Part shown: piece by piece, positions 2,238 through 30,010 of the stretch | How the letters are laid out: each line of letters starts with the position of its first letter | Position numbering within the stretch: position 1 is the stretch's first letter | Program-made: the position numbers and the translations under genes | Assembly (NCBI GenBank): GCA_034437615.1 | Contig: DAOTTW010000226.1 | Span: 1 to 30,259 of the forward strand | Direction: 5' to 3' | Length of the DNA: 30,259 bases | From: Anaerolineae bacterium | Lineage (GTDB): Bacteria; Chloroflexota; Anaerolineae; Aggregatilineales; Phototrophicaceae | The notes under the pieces: generated by a model | Databases searched by the model: none | What the model was told of the DNA's origin: nothing | What the model saw: only the letters and a program-made list of their open reading frames with translations

Positions 2238-2324
2238 GGCGGCCAACGCCGCCCCGGACGACAAGAATGGCGTCTCTACGCGAGACGCTGACCAACCGTA
2301 GGGACGCAGCAAGCTGCGTCCGCC
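2238..2324 (+). repeat. Family-1 REP/BIME-like composite intergenic element, copy A
   Basis: Leader GGCGGCCAACGCCGCCCCGGAC (2238-2260) is near-identical to the leaders at 3674-3693 and 21606-21628. Then AAGAATGGCGTCTCTAC with hairpin GCGTCTC-tacgc-GAGACGC (2270-2288). Then GTAGGGACGCAG-caag-CTGCGTCC-GCC (2298-2324), a perfect 8-bp stem. It lies between two plus-strand genes. Confidence 0.6.
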
Positions 2325-2418: not shown

Positions 2419-3657
2419 ATGCACAAACGTTCAACCCCTATTGTACTACTGATTGCTGCCCTATCGCTGCTCGTGCTGCTGCCGTTAGCGGCGCAAGATG
2501 GCATCAGCCTGCCTATTACAGCCGATACAAGCTACACCGTTCAGCGCGGCGATGCGCTGGATACCCTGGGCGCGTTTTTTGATGTCAGCCCGACCTGCCT
2601 GGCAGAGACCAACGACATCGAACCGACAGCCCGCTTAGAAATTGGGCAGACGCTGCTCGTTTCGGTGGATTGCCCGGTGTATGGCGCTGACCCGCGTGAT
2701 GAAACCGTCGGTCTGGTGCGGGTGCAGCGTGATACGGTGCGCTTCGTGGATGACTGCGACGGTTACCGCGTGCAAAAGGCGGATACGCTGGACGAGATCG
2801 GGCAGGAATTGGATGTGTCGGTGGTGGCGTTGCTCGCAGCAAATGCGCTTGAGCGTGGGCGCGACCTGACCGAAAACACCTGCTTGACGATTCCAGCAGG
2901 CGCACCGCCTTACGGCACTGTGCCCGCATCCGATATGGGCATCGGCGGTGGTGCGAAGGTCGCTGGGGAAACCTATGTCGTGCAGCGCAACGATACGCTG
3001 GATGTCATCGGGCAGGAATTTGATGTGTCGGTTGTAGCGTTGCAGCAGGCCAATGGCATCGAAGACCCACGCACGCTGCGCCCCGGTATGACGCTCGTGG
3101 TTCCGGCAGGTGCAGCAGCTTACGGTGTATTCCCGCCCACAGATGGCAGCGCTGTGCTGGCAGACACCGCACCGAGTGGCTTCACGCTTGACGTCGAAAC
3201 GGGTGAGTCGTTAGACGACATCGCGCAGCAGTTTGACGTGTCGCTACGCGCTATCGAAATCGCCAACGGTGTGAACCCTGGCCGCAACGTCATGCCTGGA
3301 ACAGCCATCTTCATCCCGGATAACGCGCCTGTCTACGGCGTCGATGACTTCGACCCGGCGACGCTGGGCGCAGGTGGCGGCAGCACAGCGCCAGCCGTAA
3401 CAGTCGGGCCGGATACGTATATCGTGCAGCCCCGCGATACGTTGGAGACCATCGCCGCAGCGACAGACAAGCGCACGCAATGCTTGGTGGACGCCAACGA
3501 CCTGCAACGGCCTGCGCTGCTGCAACCGGGGCAAACGCTCTTCATCGACCCGGCCTGCGGCCCCTATGAGGGTGTCTATCGGCGGCCACTGCAAGCGGCT
3601 GACTCTGACGGCAGCACGGGTGATGCAGCAGCAGATGCCAGTGGTGGCGTCGGCTAA
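2419..3657 (+). CDS. Secreted protein with five LysM peptidoglycan-binding repeats
   Basis: Signal peptide MHKRSTPIVLLIAALSLLVLLPLAAQ. Five repeats of the LysM pattern Y-x-VQ-x-GD-T-L-x-x-IG-x-x-FDVS....AN.......L-x-x-G-x-T-L-x-VP, for example YVVQRNDTLDVIGQEFDVSVVALQQANGIEDPRTLRPGMTLVVP. RBS AAAGGA lies 13 nt upstream. Confidence 0.9.
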   Translation: MHKRSTPIVLLIAALSLLVLLPLAAQDGISLPITADTSYTVQRGDALDTLGAFFDVSPTCLAETNDIEPTARLEIGQTLLVSVDCPVYGADPRDETVGLVRVQRDTVRFVDDCDGYRVQKADTLDEIGQELDVSVVALLAANALERGRDLTENTCLTIPAGAPPYGTVPASDMGIGGGAKVAGETYVVQRNDTLDVIGQEFDVSVVALQQANGIEDPRTLRPGMTLVVPAGAAAYGVFPPTDGSAVLADTAPSGFTLDVETGESLDDIAQQFDVSLRAIEIANGVNPGRNVMPGTAIFIPDNAPVYGVDDFDPATLGAGGGSTAPAVTVGPDTYIVQPRDTLETIAAATDKRTQCLVDANDLQRPALLQPGQTLFIDPACGPYEGVYRRPLQAADSDGSTGDAAADASGGVG

Positions 3658-3673
3658 CGCCCAATACAGCAAT

Positions 3674-3750
3674 GCGGCTGACGCCGCCCGGACGCCAAGA
3701 ACGGCGTCCCTACAAAGCATCGTTCGCAGGGACGCGCCGAGGCGCGTCCG
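3674..3750 (+). repeat. Family-1 REP/BIME-like composite intergenic element, copy B
   Basis: GCGGCTGACGCCGCCCGGAC leader. Hairpin GGACGCC-aagaac-GGCGTCC (3690-3709) followed by CTAC. Second hairpin GCAGGGACGCGC-cgag-GCGCGTCC-GC (3726-3751). AAGAACGGCGT recurs at 3784-3794, at the flotillin stop. It lies between convergent genes (LysM + and flotillin -). Confidence 0.6.
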
Positions 3751-3793: not shown

Positions 3794-5359
3794 TTAGGTG
3801 TTGTCGTGCTCCTCCTGAATGTAACGCGGTGCTGTGTATTCGTCATCAGTATCAGCAGCGGAGCCAGTGCTGTCGCTGGTGGGTGTCTCGTCAGCCAGTG
3901 CAGCCGCGCCGTTCATATCCCGCAGCGAGTTAAACAGCTTGGCGGCCCGCTTCAGCACCGATTCAAAATCATCGTCGGAGAGCGCTTCGACCTTCGCCAT
4001 GAACATCTGCGAGACTTCCGGCACGTTCATCAGCAGGTCCATCAGCGTATTGCCTGTGCTGTGCGCACCGTTGCCATTGGACCCGTTGCCACCCTGCCCA
4101 AACTGCACGATGCGCACGTTATTGCCGAGGCCCCCCATTGCATCTGCAACAGCGCGGACTTTCTCGATGTCGGCCTGTGTCACCTGCTCGATGACGAATT
4201 GGCGCAGGTTGATTTCACCCTCGGCGGCGCTGGCCGAGGCGATTTCGCGGCGGCCAGCGGCTTCTGCGAGTAGCTTGGCCTTTTCACCTTCAGCCTCAGC
4301 CAGCAAGCGCGCCCGCACACCCTCAGCTTCGGCGCGTACACCGGCGGCCTCGGCTTCCTTCATGACTTGCAGCGCAATGGCATCAGCGCGGCCTTGCTGC
4401 TCAACGGCGTCGGCGTCGGCCTGTGCACGCTGGCGTGTGGCGTTGGCTTGCGCTTCTGCTTCGATCTCGATACGGCGGCGCTCAGCCTCGGCACGGATTT
4501 CGATAGATTGACGGTCTGCGCGGGCTGGCACCAGCACAGCGGCCTCCTGTTCTTGTTCCACTGCCAATGCACGGCGGCGTTGCACTTCCTGATCGGAATC
4601 GGCCTGCGCAAGCCCAATTTCGCGGCCCACCTGCACCTCACGCAGTTGCAGGGCTTCGCGCTGCTGCAAAATCTCGCGCTGTGAATCGAGTTCGGCTTGT
4701 TCGGCCTGTTGCCTGGCCATCGCGGCCTTAATGCGAGCTTCACGGTCCGCTTCGGCGCGTGCAATTTCGGCGTCGCGCTTCACGGCTGCGATCTGCGGCG
4801 CGGCCATCGCTTGGAGGTAGCCTTCTTCGTCGGTGATTTCTTCGATGCCCATTGAGATGATCTTGACGCCCATCGCTGCCACATCGTCGCTGGCCAAATC
4901 CTGCACGCGCTGCACGAATTCGTCGCGGTCACGGTGGATATTCTCGACGGTCATCTGGCCGACGATAGCGCGGAAGTTGGCGCTGAGCGTTTCTGTGATG
5001 ACCTGCCGCACCTCTTCGCGTGTTGAATCCAGGAAGGCTTTTGCGGCGGTCTGGATGGCACCTTCTTCGCCGTCAATCTGCACCTGCGCCACCCAATCGA
5101 GGCGAATGGGCACGCCGCTAATCGTATACACTTCGTCTTTTTCGGTTTTGATCGTCATAATCGTCAGGTCTAGCGTCTGGTGCGTCTGGATGATGGGCCA
5201 GACGAACACACCGCCATTCGAGACCATGCGCGTCCCGCCGCTACCATAGACCACAAAGACTTTACTGGGGGGCACCTGATAGTAGTAGCGCGATACCAGC
5301 ACCACCACGAACACCACAATCAGCGCAAGTGCGCCACCGATGATAATAATTGTTTCCAT
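3794..5359 (-). CDS. floT: Flotillin / SPFH (band 7) family protein, FloT/YuaG-like
   Basis: 521 aa. N-terminal TM helix (IIIIGGALALIVVFVVVLV). SPFH domain (SGGTRMVSNGGVFVWPIIQTHQTLDLTIMTIKTEKDEVYTISGVPIRLDWVAQVQI). Then a long Ala/Glu/Arg/Gln-rich coiled-coil (flotillin repeats) and a disordered C-terminus. Immediately downstream of an NfeD gene, as in Bacillus subtilis yuaF-floT. Confidence 0.9.
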   Translation of the reverse strand: METIIIIGGALALIVVFVVVLVSRYYYQVPPSKVFVVYGSGGTRMVSNGGVFVWPIIQTHQTLDLTIMTIKTEKDEVYTISGVPIRLDWVAQVQIDGEEGAIQTAAKAFLDSTREEVRQVITETLSANFRAIVGQMTVENIHRDRDEFVQRVQDLASDDVAAMGVKIISMGIEEITDEEGYLQAMAAPQIAAVKRDAEIARAEADREARIKAAMARQQAEQAELDSQREILQQREALQLREVQVGREIGLAQADSDQEVQRRRALAVEQEQEAAVLVPARADRQSIEIRAEAERRRIEIEAEAQANATRQRAQADADAVEQQGRADAIALQVMKEAEAAGVRAEAEGVRARLLAEAEGEKAKLLAEAAGRREIASASAAEGEINLRQFVIEQVTQADIEKVRAVADAMGGLGNNVRIVQFGQGGNGSNGNGAHSTGNTLMDLLMNVPEVSQMFMAKVEALSDDDFESVLKRAAKLFNSLRDMNGAAALADETPTSDSTGSAADTDDEYTAPRYIQEEHDNT

Positions 5360-5421
5360 GTGTTGTTTAGCCTCGTATCATAATGTTTTTCTGTGTGTGC
5401 TTGTTGTCGTGTCCTGTCGTA

Positions 5422-5469
5422 TAGGGGTTTAGCGTGCCAAACCCAGGGCTTAGCACGCTGAGCCACTAC
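5422..5469 (-). repeat. Family-2 double-hairpin REP-like element, degenerate copy (opposite orientation to the 29930-29978 copy)
   Basis: TAGGGGTTTAGCGTGCCAAACCCAGGGCTTAGCACGCTGAGCCACTAC. Its reverse complement aligns base for base with 29930-29978, with only a few substitutions, some of which create mismatches or wobbles in the stems. It lies in the nfeD-floT intergenic space. Confidence 0.65.
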
Positions 5470-5504: not shown

Positions 5505-6098
5505 TTACTCGGAATTGCGGCGGCGGACAGTCAAGCGCCCATTATTGATGCCGACAATCGACACAATCGCGCCCTTTTCCAGCGGCTCAGCGTCTTCGAT
5601 GTGGCGCACCGCGTACTTGATGCGCTCGCCGTCGATAATCAGCGCCTCACCGAGTTTGCCCGCAGGCGTATCAACGGTGATGCGTGCCCGTTTACCGATG
5701 AGCGTATCGGCACTGTGCAGGGCGTCCGGTTCACGGCGCAGCAGAAAGCGCATGAACACCTGAAAGCCACGCCCCAGCAGCAGGCCGAACAGCACACTGA
5801 GCAAGAGCACCAGCAGCATCGGCCATTCAGCCAACGACCCCGCCAAGCCCATCGCGCCGAAGCCCACACAGAAAATCGCAATCACATTCAGGCTGATGCC
5901 CACCGCCTGACTATCGCCGCCATCGGCCCCCACATCGGCATCGGCCCCGATGTCCACATCTGCGCCGAAATCCACATCCGCAGCGCCTGCATCGGCATCA
6001 CCGACGCCGCCCAGGAAAATGCTGATTAGCATAAAGACCACGCCAAACGCCAGGATCGCGCCGAAGATCGCGGTCGGGTTGCTCAATAACTCGTTCAT
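5505..6098 (-). CDS. nfeD: NfeD-family membrane protein (flotillin-associated; YuaF-like short NfeD with C-terminal OB-fold)
   Basis: 197 aa. Two hydrophobic segments flank an acidic GAD-rich low-complexity insert (GDADAGAADVDFGADVDIGADADVGADGGD). C-terminal beta-rich OB-like region (GKRARITVDTPAGKLGEALIIDGERIKYAVRHIEDAEPLEKGAIVSIVGINNGRLTVRR). Sits just upstream of flotillin on the same strand. RBS GGAG upstream. Confidence 0.8.
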   Translation of the reverse strand: MNELLSNPTAIFGAILAFGVVFMLISIFLGGVGDADAGAADVDFGADVDIGADADVGADGGDSQAVGISLNVIAIFCVGFGAMGLAGSLAEWPMLLVLLLSVLFGLLLGRGFQVFMRFLLRREPDALHSADTLIGKRARITVDTPAGKLGEALIIDGERIKYAVRHIEDAEPLEKGAIVSIVGINNGRLTVRRRNSE

Positions 6099-8170: not shown

Positions 8171-8189
8171 GGCCTAAAATATCAATTTG

Positions 8190-8215
8190 CAGGGGCGCTG
8201 CATTGCGCCCCTACA
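8190..8215 (+). terminator. REP-like GC-rich hairpin downstream of rpsP (GCAGGGGCGC-tgcatt-GCGCCCCTAC)
   Basis: 7-bp perfect stem GGGGCGC/GCGCCCC with a TGCATT loop, flanked by a GCAGG head and a CCTAC tail. No U-tract. A near-copy (GGGCGC-gatgcatt-GCGCCC) is at 19201-19220. Confidence 0.45.
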
Positions 8216-8220
8216 GCGGG

Positions 8221-8306
8221 TTTACATCTTACATCCTTGCATCTTTACATCTTGCATCCTTATATCCTTGCATCTTTACATCTTTACATCTTTACATCCT
8301 TGCATC
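8221..8306 (+). repeat. Tandem array of about 11 copies of an 8-bp unit (consensus TTACATCT / TTGCATCC)
   Basis: Read directly: TTTACATC TTACATCC TTGCATCT TTACATCT TGCATCC TTATATCC TTGCATCT TTACATCT TTACATCT TTACATCC TTGCATCC. It lies between rpsP and the KH-protein gene promoter. The spurious ORF 8187-8582 overlaps it. Confidence 0.85.
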
Positions 8307-8363
8307 CGACAAAGCCGACACGTCTACGCCTGCTTCGTCCTTCATCTCGATTTAACTGTAATG

Positions 8364-11575: not shown

Positions 11576-11604
11576 TTTGCGGGAGGGCCATAACCCTCCC
11601 CTAC
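11576..11604 (+). terminator. REP-like hairpin downstream of dnaG (TTTGC-GGGAGGG-ccataa-CCCTCCC-CTAC)
   Basis: 7-bp perfect stem. The TTTGC head resembles copy E and the CTAC tail resembles family 1. It lies 24 nt after the dnaG stop. Confidence 0.4.
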
Positions 11605-11761: not shown

Positions 11762-13531
11762 ATGAGTAACGACGACCTACGCAATGCGATCAACGCCTTC
11801 AGTGACAACTCAACCAGTGACGAAGAGACCTCTTTGCTGCGCAAGATCAAGAATTTGCCGAAAGACACCGTCGCAGAGGAGAACGAAAACGAAGAGGATT
11901 TCAGCGAAGACGATGCTATCGGTGATGACGTGAACCGCGAAGATGCCGACAGCGAAGACGACGAGGCATACGACGAAGAAGACTTAACCGGTCTAGCGCT
12001 CGCAGATGACCCGGTTCGTATGTACCTCAAGGAAATCGGTCAGGTGCCGCTGCTGAATAGCAACCGCGAGACCCGGCTCAGTACCCAACTGGCCGCCGAA
12101 AACCTGCTGCAAGAATTAACAGACAAACTCGCCAGCCTGGAACGCTTTGGCAGTGAGGGCGCACCTGATAAGGACGCGGCCAAAGGCAAAAAGGCCAACA
12201 AAGAGGCGCGTTCTGTAAAGGACAAGGCATCTAAGGCTGCTGCGGTCGTGAGCGGTGAACAGGCGGCCAATGGCACGGGCGACGGCCAACAACCTGCGCC
12301 GCTGCCGAATGCTCTGGACGTGACGCGCAGTGCTTATCTCTATCTGGAGGAAAAATGGCAAGCTGCCCTGCAAACGGCTGCTGAACTGGAAACCGAGCCA
12401 CCCGACCTGCGCGAACTGATTGACGAGATCGAAGCAACAAACAAAAACTGGGATCAAGACGGCGATTCCTACATGCGCAAATACTTCAAGCAGGGTGATT
12501 GGGGGCGCGATGCAGAGTGGACGGCCTACGTCAGCGAATTGTTTGACGTGGTCCATGCGCTGCATCTGATCCCGCCCGTACAGCAGATGCAGCTACGCGG
12601 CCACTATCGCAAGCACAACACGCTGCCGGGCTTGAATGAATTTACAGCGTGGCTAGAAGACGACGAGGACCCCCTAGAAGAAGCCCGCTTTGCCCATGAG
12701 CGCGTCGAACAGCGTGCAGAAATGGCCGTCGAAGCGCTGACGCGGGCTAACCTGCGCCTGGTGGTCAGCGTGGCGAAGCGTTACATGGGGCGCGGCATCG
12801 GCTTCCTTGACCTAATTCAAGAAGGTAACCTGGGTCTGCTGCGTGCTGTCTCCAAGTTCGACCATACGAAGGGCTATAAGTTCAGCACCTATGCGACGTG
12901 GTGGATTCGGCAGGCCATCAGCCGCGCCATAGCCGACCAAGCCCGCACGATTCGCATTCCGGTGCATATGGTGGAGACGATTAACCGCCTGATGCGCGTG
13001 CAGCGTGAATTGCTGCAAACGTTGGGCGCAGAGCCAAGCGCAGAGCAGATCGCGCTGGAAATGGACATCCTGCCAAAAGAAGACGTGGACGCCATCAAAT
13101 TCCTGCGCAAAGAGGGCGCACACCTGGACCCCTCGTTGCAGCGCAAGCTGCGCCGCGCCGCGCAGAAAGTGCGCAAAATCATGCGCATTAGCCAGGAACC
13201 GATGAGCCTGGATATGCCCATCGGCCAAGAAGACAGCAGCCAACTCGGTGATTTTATCCCTGATGACAACATGCCCGGCCCGGTGGATTCAGCCAGCCGC
13301 CAATTGCTGAAAGAGCAAATTAGCTCCGCGCTGGGTGTGCTCAGTGACCGTGAGCGCGAGGTGCTGCAAATGCGCTTCGGCCTGATGGACGGCCAAGATC
13401 ACACGCTGGAAGAGGTCGGCAAGTATTTCGGCGTGACGCGAGAGCGCATCCGGCAGATCGAAGCGAAGGCGCTGCGTAAGCTGCGGCACCCTACCCGGAG
13501 CCGCCAACTACGTGATTACCTTGAGATGTAG
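11762..13531 (+). CDS. rpoD: RNA polymerase primary sigma factor (sigma-70 family, group 1) with acidic N-terminal region
   Basis: Region 1.2 ([16 protein letters not shown]). Region 2 ([37 protein letters not shown]). Region 3 and region 4 HTH ([29 protein letters not shown]). N-terminal Asp/Glu-rich low-complexity stretch. Confidence 0.95.
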
Positions 13532-15576: not shown

Positions 15577-15847
15577 GGCAGGGGCGTGCCCCTGCCAGAT
15601 TGATTGTCCAGGCTGCGTATTTGCGTATTGACGGGCGGATCATGATCTGACCCTGTACAATCGCATGATGGTAACGACTCAGCCCTCACCCCAAACCCCT
15701 CTCCCGAACGTGCCTTTGGCACTGGGAGAGCGGCTTTTAACAGCCTGCTTCCCCCTCTCCGTTGTTGTCTGGGTATGGTGAGAGAGGGAGATCGAGGAGG
15801 GGGTGAGGGCAAATTCGCGGGCAAAATAGGCCTACCTGAGTCGTTAC
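15577..15847 (-). promoter_or_regulatory. Structured intergenic region between the substrate-binding and permease genes: GC hairpin plus long nested inverted repeat
   Basis: GGCAGGGG-cgtg-CCCCTGCC (15577-15596). GTAACGACTCAG (15671-15682) pairs with CTGAGTCGTTAC (15836-15847). CCCTCACCCC (15683-15692) pairs with GGGGTGAGGG (15800-15809). CTCTCCC/GGGAGAG and GTGCC-ttt-GGCAC nest inside. ORFs 15531-15851(-) and 15775-16317(+) here are CT/GA-rich and spurious. Confidence 0.45.
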
Positions 15848-15864
15848 GCATGACGCTTGACAGC

Positions 15865-19182: not shown

Positions 19183-19200
19183 GCACAAACGGCATGGCAA

Positions 19201-19220
19201 GGGCGCGATGCATTGCGCCC
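19201..19220 (+). repeat. REP-like hairpin GGGCGC-gatgcatt-GCGCCC (paralog of 8190-8215)
   Basis: Same GGGCGC...TGCATT...GCGCCC core and a CAAGG/CAGGG 5' flank as the rpsP-downstream hairpin. Confidence 0.4.
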
Positions 19221-21605: not shown

Positions 21606-21690
21606 GGCGGCTGACGCCGCCCCGGACACCCAATTGGGTGTCCTTACGGTTCACAGCGGTTTTGTAGGGACGTGCAATGGCACGTCCGCC
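21606..21690 (+). repeat. Family-1 REP/BIME-like composite intergenic element, copy D
   Basis: Leader GGCGGCTGACGCCGCCCCGGAC. Hairpin GGACACCC-aatt-GGGTGTCC (21624-21643) followed by TTAC. Second hairpin GTAGGGACGTGC-aatg-GCACGTCC-GCC (21664-21690). Stem cores differ from copies A and B but remain perfectly paired. Lies between a convergent + gene and the GT2 gene. Confidence 0.6.
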
Positions 21691-27780: not shown

Positions 27781-27815
27781 CAAGTTTGCGGACGCGCAGA
27801 AGCGCGTCCCTGCGA
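27781..27815 (+). repeat. Family-1 singleton extended palindrome (copy E): GTTTGC-GGACGCGC-agaa-GCGCGTCC-CTGCGAAC
   Basis: Perfect 8-bp stem identical to the copy-B second hairpin (GGACGCGC/GCGCGTCC). The 3' flank CCTGCGAAC is the reverse complement of copy B's 5' flank GTTCGCAGG. It lies 25 nt after the sulfatase-like gene stop, in the about 250-nt leader of the next gene. Confidence 0.55.
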
Positions 27816-28003: not shown

Positions 28004-29899
28004 ATGCCAAAGCTAGCTTTTCGTGAACGCTTGCAACAGGATAAACCGCTGCTGGCCGACGGTGCGATGGGCACCCAGTTACTAGAAAAGGGTGGTTTAT
28101 CGCTGACGACCTGCTTCGACCATCTGAACCTGACACACCCGGAACTCGTGCGCAGCGTGCATGAGGCTTACATCCAGGCCGGTTCAGATTTAATCGAGAC
28201 CAATACGTTTGGTTCTAATCGCTTTAAATTGGCAGAACATGGGCTGGGCGAGCAGGTGCAGGCGATTAATCAAGCAGCCGTGCGTTTAGCGCGGCAGTCA
28301 GCGCAGGCCGCCCCGCGTGCTGTGTACATCGCTGGCTCTATCGGGCCGTTGGGGGTCGCCGTTCGGCCCTATGGCAAGGTGACGAAAGAGGCCGCCCGTA
28401 ACGCCTTCATAGAGCAGATGCGGGCAATGGTCAGCGTGGGGGTGGATGTGTTCTTGCTAGAGACGTTCCCGAACCACAACGACTTGCTGCTGGCGATTGA
28501 TGCGGCGAAGGCCGTTGCGCCCGATATGCCCATCATCGCACAGGCGACCTTCTCCACCGACAGCCTGACGTACACGGGCGACGGTCCGGCGCGTGTAGCG
28601 CACGACCTGCACCGCGCTGGTGTGGATGTGCTGGGGGCCAACTGTGGTGGCGGTCCGTCGCACCTCTCGACTGTGCTAGAGAGCATGACGCGGGCCACAC
28701 CGACAGGCGTGTTTTCTGCCATGCCGAACGCGGGCTTCCCAGAAGTGGTCGGCGGGCGGGCGCTGTATTCAGCCAGCGCCAGCTACTTTGAGGATTACAC
28801 CCGCACGCTGACGGGGCAAGGCGCACGCATCATCGGTGGCTGCTGTGGCACCACACCAGCACACATCGCGGCCATGCGAAAGGCGCTGGATACACCACAA
28901 AACCCCATGCCACAGGTCGAAGTGCTTAGCGCGGAAGAGGACGAAGCCGACGACCCCACACCACAGACCGCGACCTATCTCTCGCAACGTTTAGCAGAGG
29001 GCCGCTTTACGATCACGGTTGAGATGACGCCACCCCGCAGCTACAGCGCCGATAAACTGCTGCATCATGCGCGTTTATTGAGCGACGCCGGGGCTGACCT
29101 GATTGATGTGGCCGATACACCCGCCGCCAAAATGAAAATGAGCGCCTGGGCCGTCAGCCATCTATTGCAGGATCGGGTCGGCATGGAGACCGTGCTGCAC
29201 TTCCCGACGCGGGGCCGTAACATCTTGCGCGTTCAAGGCGATTTGCTGGCTGCGCACGCGCTAGGGCTGCGTAACCTGTTCGTGACAATGGGCGACCCCA
29301 CCCGCATCGGGGACTATCCAGAGGCGACAGATAGCTACGACATCGTGCCCTCTAAGCTGATTGCACTCGTCAAAGGGGAGATGAACGCGGGCCGCGATAT
29401 GGCAGGCAACAGCATCGGCAAGCCGACCAGCTTCACGGTGGGCTGTGCGCTGAATATGGCTGCTGATGACCTGGACCGCGAACTGAAGGTGCTGGATAAA
29501 AAGCTGGCAGCCGGTGCGGATTTTGCGCTGGGTCAGGCTGTCTTTGATCCACCGCGTATTGATGCCTTTTTGCAGCGCTACGAAGAAACGCACGCTACGC
29601 CGTTCGATCTGCCCGTCATTATGGGCGTGATCCCGTTGCGTAGCCTGGGTCAAGCACGCTTTTTGCATAACGAAGTGCCTGGTATCAGCATCCCGGACGC
29701 GATTTTTAAGCGCCTGGAAGAGGCCGATGAGCGCGGCGACGACGCGGCGGTTGAACGTGAGGGCTTACGCATCGCGCAGGAACTCATGCAGCAGATGCGC
29801 GACCGTGTGCAGGGTGCGTATATCATCCCATCCGTAGGGCGCTACGACCTGGCCGCCGAACTGGTGAACGCGATTGCGATGGCCCCTGTCGGAATATAA
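28004..29899 (+). CDS. Bifunctional homocysteine S-methyltransferase / 5,10-methylenetetrahydrofolate reductase (YitJ-like)
   Basis: N-terminal Hcy-binding (S-methyltransferase) domain with LLADGAMGTQL, ETNTFGSN, GANCGGGP and GGCCGTTPAHI (zinc-binding Cys) motifs. C-terminal MTHFR TIM-barrel (TITVEMTPPRS...LLSDAGADLIDVAD...GIPLRSL). Start is set at 28004 (MPKLAFRERL), not ORF-track 27875. Confidence 0.85.
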   Translation: MPKLAFRERLQQDKPLLADGAMGTQLLEKGGLSLTTCFDHLNLTHPELVRSVHEAYIQAGSDLIETNTFGSNRFKLAEHGLGEQVQAINQAAVRLARQSAQAAPRAVYIAGSIGPLGVAVRPYGKVTKEAARNAFIEQMRAMVSVGVDVFLLETFPNHNDLLLAIDAAKAVAPDMPIIAQATFSTDSLTYTGDGPARVAHDLHRAGVDVLGANCGGGPSHLSTVLESMTRATPTGVFSAMPNAGFPEVVGGRALYSASASYFEDYTRTLTGQGARIIGGCCGTTPAHIAAMRKALDTPQNPMPQVEVLSAEEDEADDPTPQTATYLSQRLAEGRFTITVEMTPPRSYSADKLLHHARLLSDAGADLIDVADTPAAKMKMSAWAVSHLLQDRVGMETVLHFPTRGRNILRVQGDLLAAHALGLRNLFVTMGDPTRIGDYPEATDSYDIVPSKLIALVKGEMNAGRDMAGNSIGKPTSFTVGCALNMAADDLDRELKVLDKKLAAGADFALGQAVFDPPRIDAFLQRYEETHATPFDLPVIMGVIPLRSLGQARFLHNEVPGISIPDAIFKRLEEADERGDDAAVEREGLRIAQELMQQMRDRVQGAYIIPSVGRYDLAAELVNAIAMAPVGI

Positions 29900-29929
29900 T
29901 GGATAAATGAAAACGAACCTATATCATTG

Positions 29930-29978
29930 GTAGGGGCTTAGCCTGCTAAGCCCTGGGTTTGGCAAGCCAAACCCCTAC
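29930..29978 (+). repeat. Family-2 double-hairpin REP-like element, intact copy
   Basis: GTAGG-GGCTTAG-cctg-CTAAGCC-ctg-GGTTTGG-caag-CCAAACC-CCTAC. Two perfect 7-8 bp stems are bracketed by complementary GTAGGGG...CCCCTAC ends. Lies 31 nt after the stop of the preceding gene. Confidence 0.65.
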
Positions 29979-30010
29979 ACGATATCATCCGAATCCGTTT
30001 TGATTTCTCC

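Follow-up and report, generated by a model that had tools for sequence, protein, structure and literature searches.

A 49-nt double hairpin in intergenic spacers of an uncultured Anaerolineae bacterium, probably a heterodimer of GTAG-tagged REPs

Two intergenic spacers of an uncultured Anaerolineae bacterium, one between nfeD and floT and the other between a methionine-cycle gene and a kinase-like gene, hold nearly the same pair of short hairpins, and the question is what kind of sequence would be found twice, in opposite orientations, beside genes so unlike each other. The window analysed here is the whole 30,259-nt stretch of contig DAOTTW010000226.1; it was studied together with DNA of the same genome recovered from public metagenomes. 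The pair (doublets A and B, Table 1) is probably a head-to-head (HH) heterodimer of GTAG-tagged repetitive extragenic palindromes (REPs) and part of a dense, multi-variant intergenic population of such repeats in this member of the Chloroflexota from microbial mats. The kind of repeat is a known one; the lineage is one in which it was previously undescribed.

Doublets A and B lie on opposite strands of the window, as the first-pass annotation had stated, and relative to the genes around it each reads GTAG..CTAC in the sense direction. The reverse complement of B is identical to A at 43 of 49 positions with no gaps; the alignment had been placed from 5422 onwards, and its start is 5421. A repeat finder returned the two as the longest inverted repeat of the window, with 53-nt arms (5417-5469 and 29930-29982) that are 89% complementary, so the match runs on by ACGA at one side. 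The 19-mer core common to A and B occurs twice in the window, against 0.00 expected from 100 shuffles. The substitutions in B that were said to weaken its stems are both present, hairpin 1 having a C.A mismatch and hairpin 2 a G.T pair. B had accordingly been called the decayed copy and A the intact one; the stem defects stand, but the decay is mild and one of the defects is a strain polymorphism, position 5431 (the G.T site) being T in the window and C, which gives a perfect stem, in contig L005. The gene map agrees with the contexts first assigned to the two copies, B within the nfeD-floT spacer and A between two unrelated genes.

The locus, with identical proteins, was found in the microbial-mat metagenomes JGI 3300012009 and ENA PRJEB25599 and in MAG GCA_964530125.1. 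Overlapping contigs were 99.5-99.9% identical to the window and represent the same population. Extensions were obtained by look-ups of window proteins and of proteins from homology searches. Contig L028 added ca. 15.2 kb leftward (window position = L028 position - 15185) and was reached by a joint query of an 83-aa kinase fragment and a 372-aa kinase-like protein, the 372-aa part of which dominated the matches. Contig L036, part of an 81.8-kb MAG contig reached through a sulfatase, added ca. 7.5 kb rightward (window position = L036 position + 16235). Look-up of the 631-aa methionine-cycle protein gave a 3.4-kb contig only. Among the Uma2 paralogues, P0243 led to L041, an unlinked 6.3-kb contig from the same sample that also bears REP units, and P0242, P0318 and P0294 belonged to other organisms; the SH3 and LysM paralogues were too diverged. 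Where homologues of FloT had a source name, it was mostly Anaerolineae or Chloroflexota; the nearest that was not an exact match shared 83% identity.

The ca. 23 kb of flanking DNA from the same genome contain three further doublets (C, D and E) and additional single units. The earlier caveat, that A and B might be the only two copies, thus falls away, and the proposal of a dispersed REP-like family with GTAG heads, a double hairpin and both orientations held at every point. The element had been described as a 48-bp double hairpin; it is real, but its length is 49 nt and it consists of two 24-nt units rather than one unit of 48 bp. Each unit is made up of GTAG, a GC-rich 9-bp stem (GGG and 6 variable bases), 2 nt and the complementary stem ending in CCC, and in the doublet two units are inverted, body to body and 1 base apart, with the GTAG tags outward. 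Units a and b differ by two stem transitions, both of which are compensated on the other arm (C-G to T-A and A-T to G-C). In the doublets, GGGCTTAGC is reused with GGGTTTGGC or GGGCGCAAT, or two other variants are paired; doublet C shares its first hairpin with A and B but not its second. As the partners are interchangeable (a+b, a+c, c+d), the single hairpin is the unit of the family.

Table 1 Repeat units, doublets and neighbouring genes. Coordinates are those of the window unless L028 or L036 is given
Feature	Coordinates	Strand	Sequence or context
floT	3794-5359	-	
nfeD	5505-6098	-	145-nt nfeD-floT spacer holds doublet B
Homocysteine S-methyltransferase/MTHFR fusion gene	28004-29899	+	doublet A lies between this gene and the next
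P-loop kinase-like gene	from 30011 or 30053	+	
Doublet A	29930-29978	+	49 nt, reads GTAGGGGCTTAGCCTGCTAAGCCCTGGGTTTGGCAAGCCAAACCCCTAC; read as HH heterodimer of two GTAG REP units; spacer T29954
Unit a of A	29930-29953	+	GTAG GGGCTTAGC CT GCTAAGCCC; perfect 9-bp palindrome after the GTAG tag
Unit b of A	29955-29978	-	GTAG GGGTTTGGC TT GCCAAACCC
Doublet B	5421-5469	-	reverse complement reads GTAGTGGCTCAGCGTGCTAAGCCCTGGGTTTGGCACGCTAAACCCCTAT; read as a + b heterodimer
Unit a of B	5446-5469	-	recurrence of unit a
Unit b of B	5421-5444	+	head ATAG
Doublet C	L028 5150-5198		a + c; GTAGGGGCTTAGCGTGCTAAGCCC A GGGCGCAATTCATTGCGCCCCTGC
Unit a of C	L028 5150-5173		recurrence of unit a
Doublet D	L028 8027-8075		c + d; GTAGGGGCGCAATGCATTGCGCCC T GGGTGCAGCACGCTGCGTCCGCGA
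Doublet E	L036 20984-21032		a + c; GTAGGGGCTTAGCGTGCTAAGCCC T GGGCGTAATGCATTGCGCCCCTAC
Unit a of E	L036 20984-21007		recurrence of unit a
Single REP, type c	8189-8214		GCAG GGGCGC TGCATT GCGCCC CTAC; rpsP-KH spacer; tags on both sides; from the hairpin scan
Type c-like hairpin	19197-19220		decayed tag, GCAA GGGCGCGATGCATTGCGCCC
Single unit	L036 17282-17308		
Single GTAG REP, other stem	11581-11604	-	GTAG GGGAGGGTTATGGCCCTCCC; dnaG-rpoD spacer
TT dimer, GGAC-type	2256-2321		
TT dimer, GGAC-type	3690-3749		GGACGCCA..CGGCGTCC CTAC, spacer AAAGCATCGTTC, then GCAG GGACGCGCC..GGCGCGTCC
TT dimer, GGAC-type	21624-21687		
TT dimer, GGAC-type	L028 14975-15033		outside the window
TT dimer, GGAC-type	L036 15674-15735		outside the window
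Single REP, GGAC-type	27790-27813	-	GCAG tag

The single type c REP of the rpsP-KH spacer is related to, and shorter by 2 nt than, unit c of doublet D (L028 8027-8050, GTAGGGGCGCAATGCATTGCGCCC). In doublets A and B the tag is GTAG in three of the four units and ATAG in one; by our own tally, the 26 units in 59 kb comprise 18 with GTAG, 4 with GCAG and 4 with other tags. Upstream of the tag in ca. 7 of the 26 units stands ATC(A/G)T, usually ATC(A/G)TT, within 14 nt and mostly at a distance of 0-4 nt (for example window 29923-29928 and 3717-3724, and L036 20978-20983 and 15703-15710); the motif may belong to a longer form of the repeat, or it may be favoured as a target. Immediately upstream of doublet D, L028 7940-8010 is occupied by a series of GTTTTGT(T/G)(G/T)C-like repeats.

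When folded with DNA parameters, doublet A forms two 8-bp hairpins closed by an outer GTAG/CTAC stem, exactly as first drawn. As RNA, A and B reach their lowest energy as one long, imperfect hairpin (-30 to -32 kcal/mol, z -3.9 to -5.6); pairs C (a+c) and D (c+d) give two hairpins in both the DNA and the RNA folds. Over the five pairs the double hairpin has 97.8% of cells paired, 10 pairs changed on both sides and 0 of 500 shuffles as good, against 80.9%, 3 pairs and 235 of 500 for the single long hairpin, the pair counts resting on five sequences and being partly circular in that several of the units were found by the hairpin search. The double hairpin, kept through compensatory changes, is the conserved fold; the single long hairpin was rejected as a conserved structure because it does not outperform shuffles.

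A scan for any 8-bp hairpin, which presupposed neither tag nor location, was run on a 45.4-kb composite and on Markov shuffles. It found 36 hairpins, against 18.9 +/- 3.7 in the shuffles, and 19 of the 36 fell within the intergenic 12.2% of the sequence (binomial p = 5e-9). The tag GYAG/CTRC accompanied 14 of these 19 and 1 of the 17 hairpins in coding sequence (Fisher p = 4e-5). Hairpins tagged GTAG or GCAG numbered 21 in 52.9 kb, nearly all of them intergenic, against 2.5 +/- 1.6 in shuffles. Their density is ca. 4 per 10 kb, compared with at most 0.6 per 10 kb in other Anaerolineae contigs and in unrelated contigs. The sequence is repeated, dispersed, modular and partner-swapping, and the tag is attached to intergenic hairpins. 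REP-bearing spacers make up about half of the intergenic spacers examined and, by our own reading of the gene map, comprise 10 unidirectional, 3 convergent and 1 divergent. Scans of larger collections were uninformative: the 19-mer core gave one chance match in a genome contig collection, in a Saccharibacteria MAG without the element, and a 17-mer core gave 18 chance matches in a metagenome contig collection, 0 of them with the element. Both scans missed the source contig itself and are therefore silent on copy number.

The doublet had been presented as a second REP-like family, beside another in the window with stems GGACGC...GCGTCC. The stems are indeed distinct, but the architecture (GTAG + 9 + 2 + 9) is the same: the GGAC-type REPs (GTAG GGACGC... 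...GCGTCC) have the 4+9+2+9 geometry of the GGG-type units, which makes the GGG and GGAC types subtypes of one superfamily. Their pairs are built in opposite ways. The GGG-type pairs are HH with a 1-nt spacer (n = 5), whereas those of the GGAC type have the tags inward (TT) and spacers of 12-20 nt (n = 5). The sequence GCATCGTTC is present in two of the GGAC-type pair spacers.

The superfamily of GTAG-tagged REPs was defined by Di Nocera, De Gregorio and Rocco (BMC Genomics, 2013, 14:522; PMC3733652). According to the text of that paper, the stems are mostly 6-9 bp (up to 13), the loops 2-3 nt and the units 20-40 bp long, and the tag is sometimes degenerate to GYAG. The units described here likewise have an unpaired GTAG/GYAG tag at one end of a short stem-loop and agree with the superfamily in size (24-nt unit, 8-9 bp stem, 2-4 nt loop). 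The same text distinguishes HH, TT and HT dimers, HH being those with the GTAG termini outside, which may be homo-, hetero- or hybrid dimers, and gives spacers of 1-2 bp for some Opitutus terrae families, for example the GTAG-17 HH dimers. HH dimers with unlike partners, 1-2 bp spacers and several subfamilies per genome are thus common to that superfamily and to the present repeats, and the location mostly between unidirectional or convergent ORFs, also described there, is matched here. The stems GGGCTTAGC, GGGTTTGGC and GGGCGCAAT were set against the superfamily as worded in the text of PMC3733652, not against the consensus list in its Figure 1, and high copy number, a further mark of the superfamily, is represented here by a local density extrapolated from 59 kb. 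In the text of the 2013 survey the Chloroflexi are represented only by Thermomicrobium roseum (GTAG-23). That organism belongs to the Thermomicrobia, whereas the present one is a member of the Anaerolineae, and its REPs form a few clustered blocks, in contrast to those described here, which are spread over nearly every other spacer.

Three other known arrangements of REPs share some of these features. The REPINs of Pseudomonas fluorescens SBW25 (Bertels and Rainey, PLoS Genet., 2011, 7:e1002132, as reported in the text of PMC3733652) also hold two inverted REPs in one unit, and like them the a+b pairs can fold into one long RNA hairpin; their spacer is tens of nt long, in contrast to 1 nt here, and the partners here are often unlike each other. 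The term REPIN was rejected, as it denotes a conserved long hairpin that replicates as a unit, and in the present case 235 of 500 shuffles are as good as the long hairpin and the partners vary. The BIMEs of E. coli, as portrayed in passages of PMC2817692, are also intergenic mosaics of different REP types in alternating orientation, but their linker motifs are defined, their spacing is longer, and their binding of IHF, gyrase and Pol I is documented. The SMAG repeats of Stenotrophomonas maltophilia (GTAG families 6-9 in the text of PMC3733652) likewise have dense coexisting GTAG-REP subfamilies and hybrid dimers; they differ in their Gammaproteobacterium host, in their stems and in that subfamily-specific RAYT genes are known there. 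An integron attC site was rejected on inspection: neither a GTTRRRY nor a RYYYAAC core is present, and the genes on either side have housekeeping roles and are no cassettes. A search of Rfam gave no match at gathering thresholds, and at relaxed E only matches to eukaryotic miRNA and snoRNA families of 16-19 bits (E at least 0.2).

The possibility that the doublet is a MITE, its GTAGGGG/CCCCTAC ends being terminal inverted repeats moved by a DDE transposase that leaves target-site duplications, was considered and given a slim chance. MITEs are usually 100-400 bp long, with terminal inverted repeats and consistent target-site duplications. Terminal inverted repeats exist here by construction, and the direct repeat ATATCAT flanks A (29919-29925 and 29982-29988); doublet C is flanked by AGAATTTGAT and AGAATGAT or, more loosely, by AGAAT(TT)GAT (L028 5140-5149 and 5201-5208). 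These flanking repeats are, however, offset by 2-3 nt from the ends of the elements, and comparable ones are absent at B, D and E; they could be due to chance, to target-site duplication or to an extended unit. At 49 nt the doublet is far below the usual length of a MITE, and the occurrence of single 24-nt units alone and the exchange of halves between copies fit REP units and not a fixed element with terminal inverted repeats. A separate, larger element with such repeats does lie in the window at ca. 15671-15850, but there is no transposase nearby, none being encoded in the window according to Pfam and the gene tables.

Comparison with relatives bears on how the nfeD-floT copy arose. The corresponding spacers of two related Anaerolineae, with FloT proteins 77% and 76% identical, are 9 nt (L025) and 52 nt (L026) long and lack the element, which implies that copy B is an insertion or a lineage-specific gain. 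Among the contigs 99.5-99.9% identical to the window no presence/absence difference was seen, only SNPs, and there is thus no direct sign of recent movement. The SNPs are enriched in REP loci, which account for 6 of the 28 substitutions between L002 and the window by our own count.

That the hairpins are terminators lacking a U tract, or 3'-end stabilisers, which selection would have maintained at gene ends without any spread as a repeat, is very improbable. A and B both lie 30-35 nt past a stop codon in the sense orientation, as RNA they fold stably (-30 to -32 kcal/mol), and REP-bearing spacers are mostly unidirectional or convergent, all of which would suit such a role. Around A and B, however, there are zero terminator-like sites with a T run, and an intrinsic terminator, which needs a GC-rich hairpin with a U tract directly behind it, was rejected on that ground. 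Doublet C is placed where two genes start in divergent directions, and D and E run antisense to the transcription around them. Convergence cannot yield a core of 21 identical nt and a unit of 24 nt varying at 0-3 positions over four unrelated loci, and the orthologous spacers of relatives do without the element. Termination or stabilisation is possible as a secondary function acquired by the REPs.

A shared cis-regulatory site, that is an operator or RNA motif co-regulating nfeD/floT and the methionine-cycle gene, can be set aside as extremely improbable: two highly similar copies beside genes within 30 kb would be in keeping with it, as would the promoter-like TTGGCA-18-TATCAT (10 of 12; window 29959-29988) upstream of the kinase-like gene, the first hexamer of which is inside unit b of A, but this match is not reproduced at B, the other copies adjoin unrelated genes (glycosyltransferase/SH3, PP2C/DUF4139, MutS-like) and have the second half replaced by other hairpins, the element is not conserved in relatives, and no Rfam family matches at gathering thresholds.

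If the doublets are GTAG-tagged REPs, single units or pairs may have spread as single-stranded DNA hairpins through a REP-associated tyrosine (RAYT; HUH/Y1) transposase that would read the GTAG tag and the stem. This model draws on the work on GTAG REPs of Nunvar in 2010, of Ton-Hoang and Messing in 2012, of Bertels and Rainey in 2011 and of Di Nocera in 2013. Copies landing between co-directional or convergent genes would presumably be tolerated. Once transcribed, hairpins of ca. -30 kcal/mol could block 3'-5' exonucleases or pause or terminate transcription, and by either route the nfeD-floT copy may shift the ratio of the two messages. Such a shift would be a lineage-specific regulatory side effect. 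No RAYT/Y1 transposase gene was present in the 59 kb examined (Pfam and gene tables). In the text of PMC3733652, linkage to a RAYT is usual and not universal, and REPtrons, in which REPs flank their cognate RAYT gene, can be missing from REP-bearing strains. We think it somewhat more likely than not that a RAYT is present in this genome.

A bolder reading, which we regard as unlikely, is that of an unusually dense combinatorial REP system, in which many stem variants on a fixed scaffold, GTAG-GGG-N6-NN-N6'-CCC, would be joined almost freely into HH pairs spaced by 1 nt. One tagged hairpin per ca. 2-2.5 kb would imply thousands per genome, by extrapolation from 59 kb. Such a system would entail shuffling at the level of units or de novo formation of pairs, and its agent would be a RAYT clade undescribed in Chloroflexota or a mechanism independent of RAYT.

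The assignment to GTAG-tagged REPs extends the known range of GTAG-REP dimers to the class Anaerolineae, a major and mostly uncultured group. It leaves the current understanding of REPs unchanged; what merits attention is how dense the units are locally and how freely stem variants are paired in a class that has been studied little. The doublets are a compact case, with 49 nt and a 1-nt spacer, in which one unit occurs with various partners, which is relevant to the question of whether REPs spread singly or as doublets. For annotation, about half of the examined spacers can be flagged as repeat-bearing and not as specific regulatory sequence.

The repeats also account for assemblies of this organism breaking at intergenic spacers, several public contigs ending in or near repeats, some of which are REPs and others unrelated arrays. 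L005 starts inside doublet B and ends inside a GGAC-type REP, and the JGI contig ends in another repeat. The larger element mentioned above, ca. 180 nt in the oppB-SBP spacer (window 15671-15850), is bounded by long terminal inverted repeats, GTAACGACTCAGCCCTCACCCC ... GGGGGTGAGGGC..CTGAGTCGTTAC. The left arm is found again, inverted, at the end of the JGI contig (L028 1-55, 98% over 55 nt), and contig L041 (1-60) starts with sequence like its right arm. It looks like a MITE family in which contigs break.

Other repeats were noted in the same DNA. Between rpsP and the KH-domain gene (window 8222-8307) the 8-nt unit TTACATCC is repeated ca. 11 times in an array that varies in length between samples, L003 showing gaps, and that is the end point of two MAG contigs. 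The gene for the LysM protein (window 2526-3454) contains internal direct repeats at spacings of ca. 210 and 440 nt, which reflect the repeated LysM domains. Finally, a unit of the same architecture as the REPs, GTAGGGGCGACTC-GC-GAGTCGCCC, was seen in another Chloroflexota-like organism (L043 12231-12255 and L044 ca. 13435-13459), where it sits within a predicted 694-aa ORF without a Pfam domain and has a loop that differs between the two samples.
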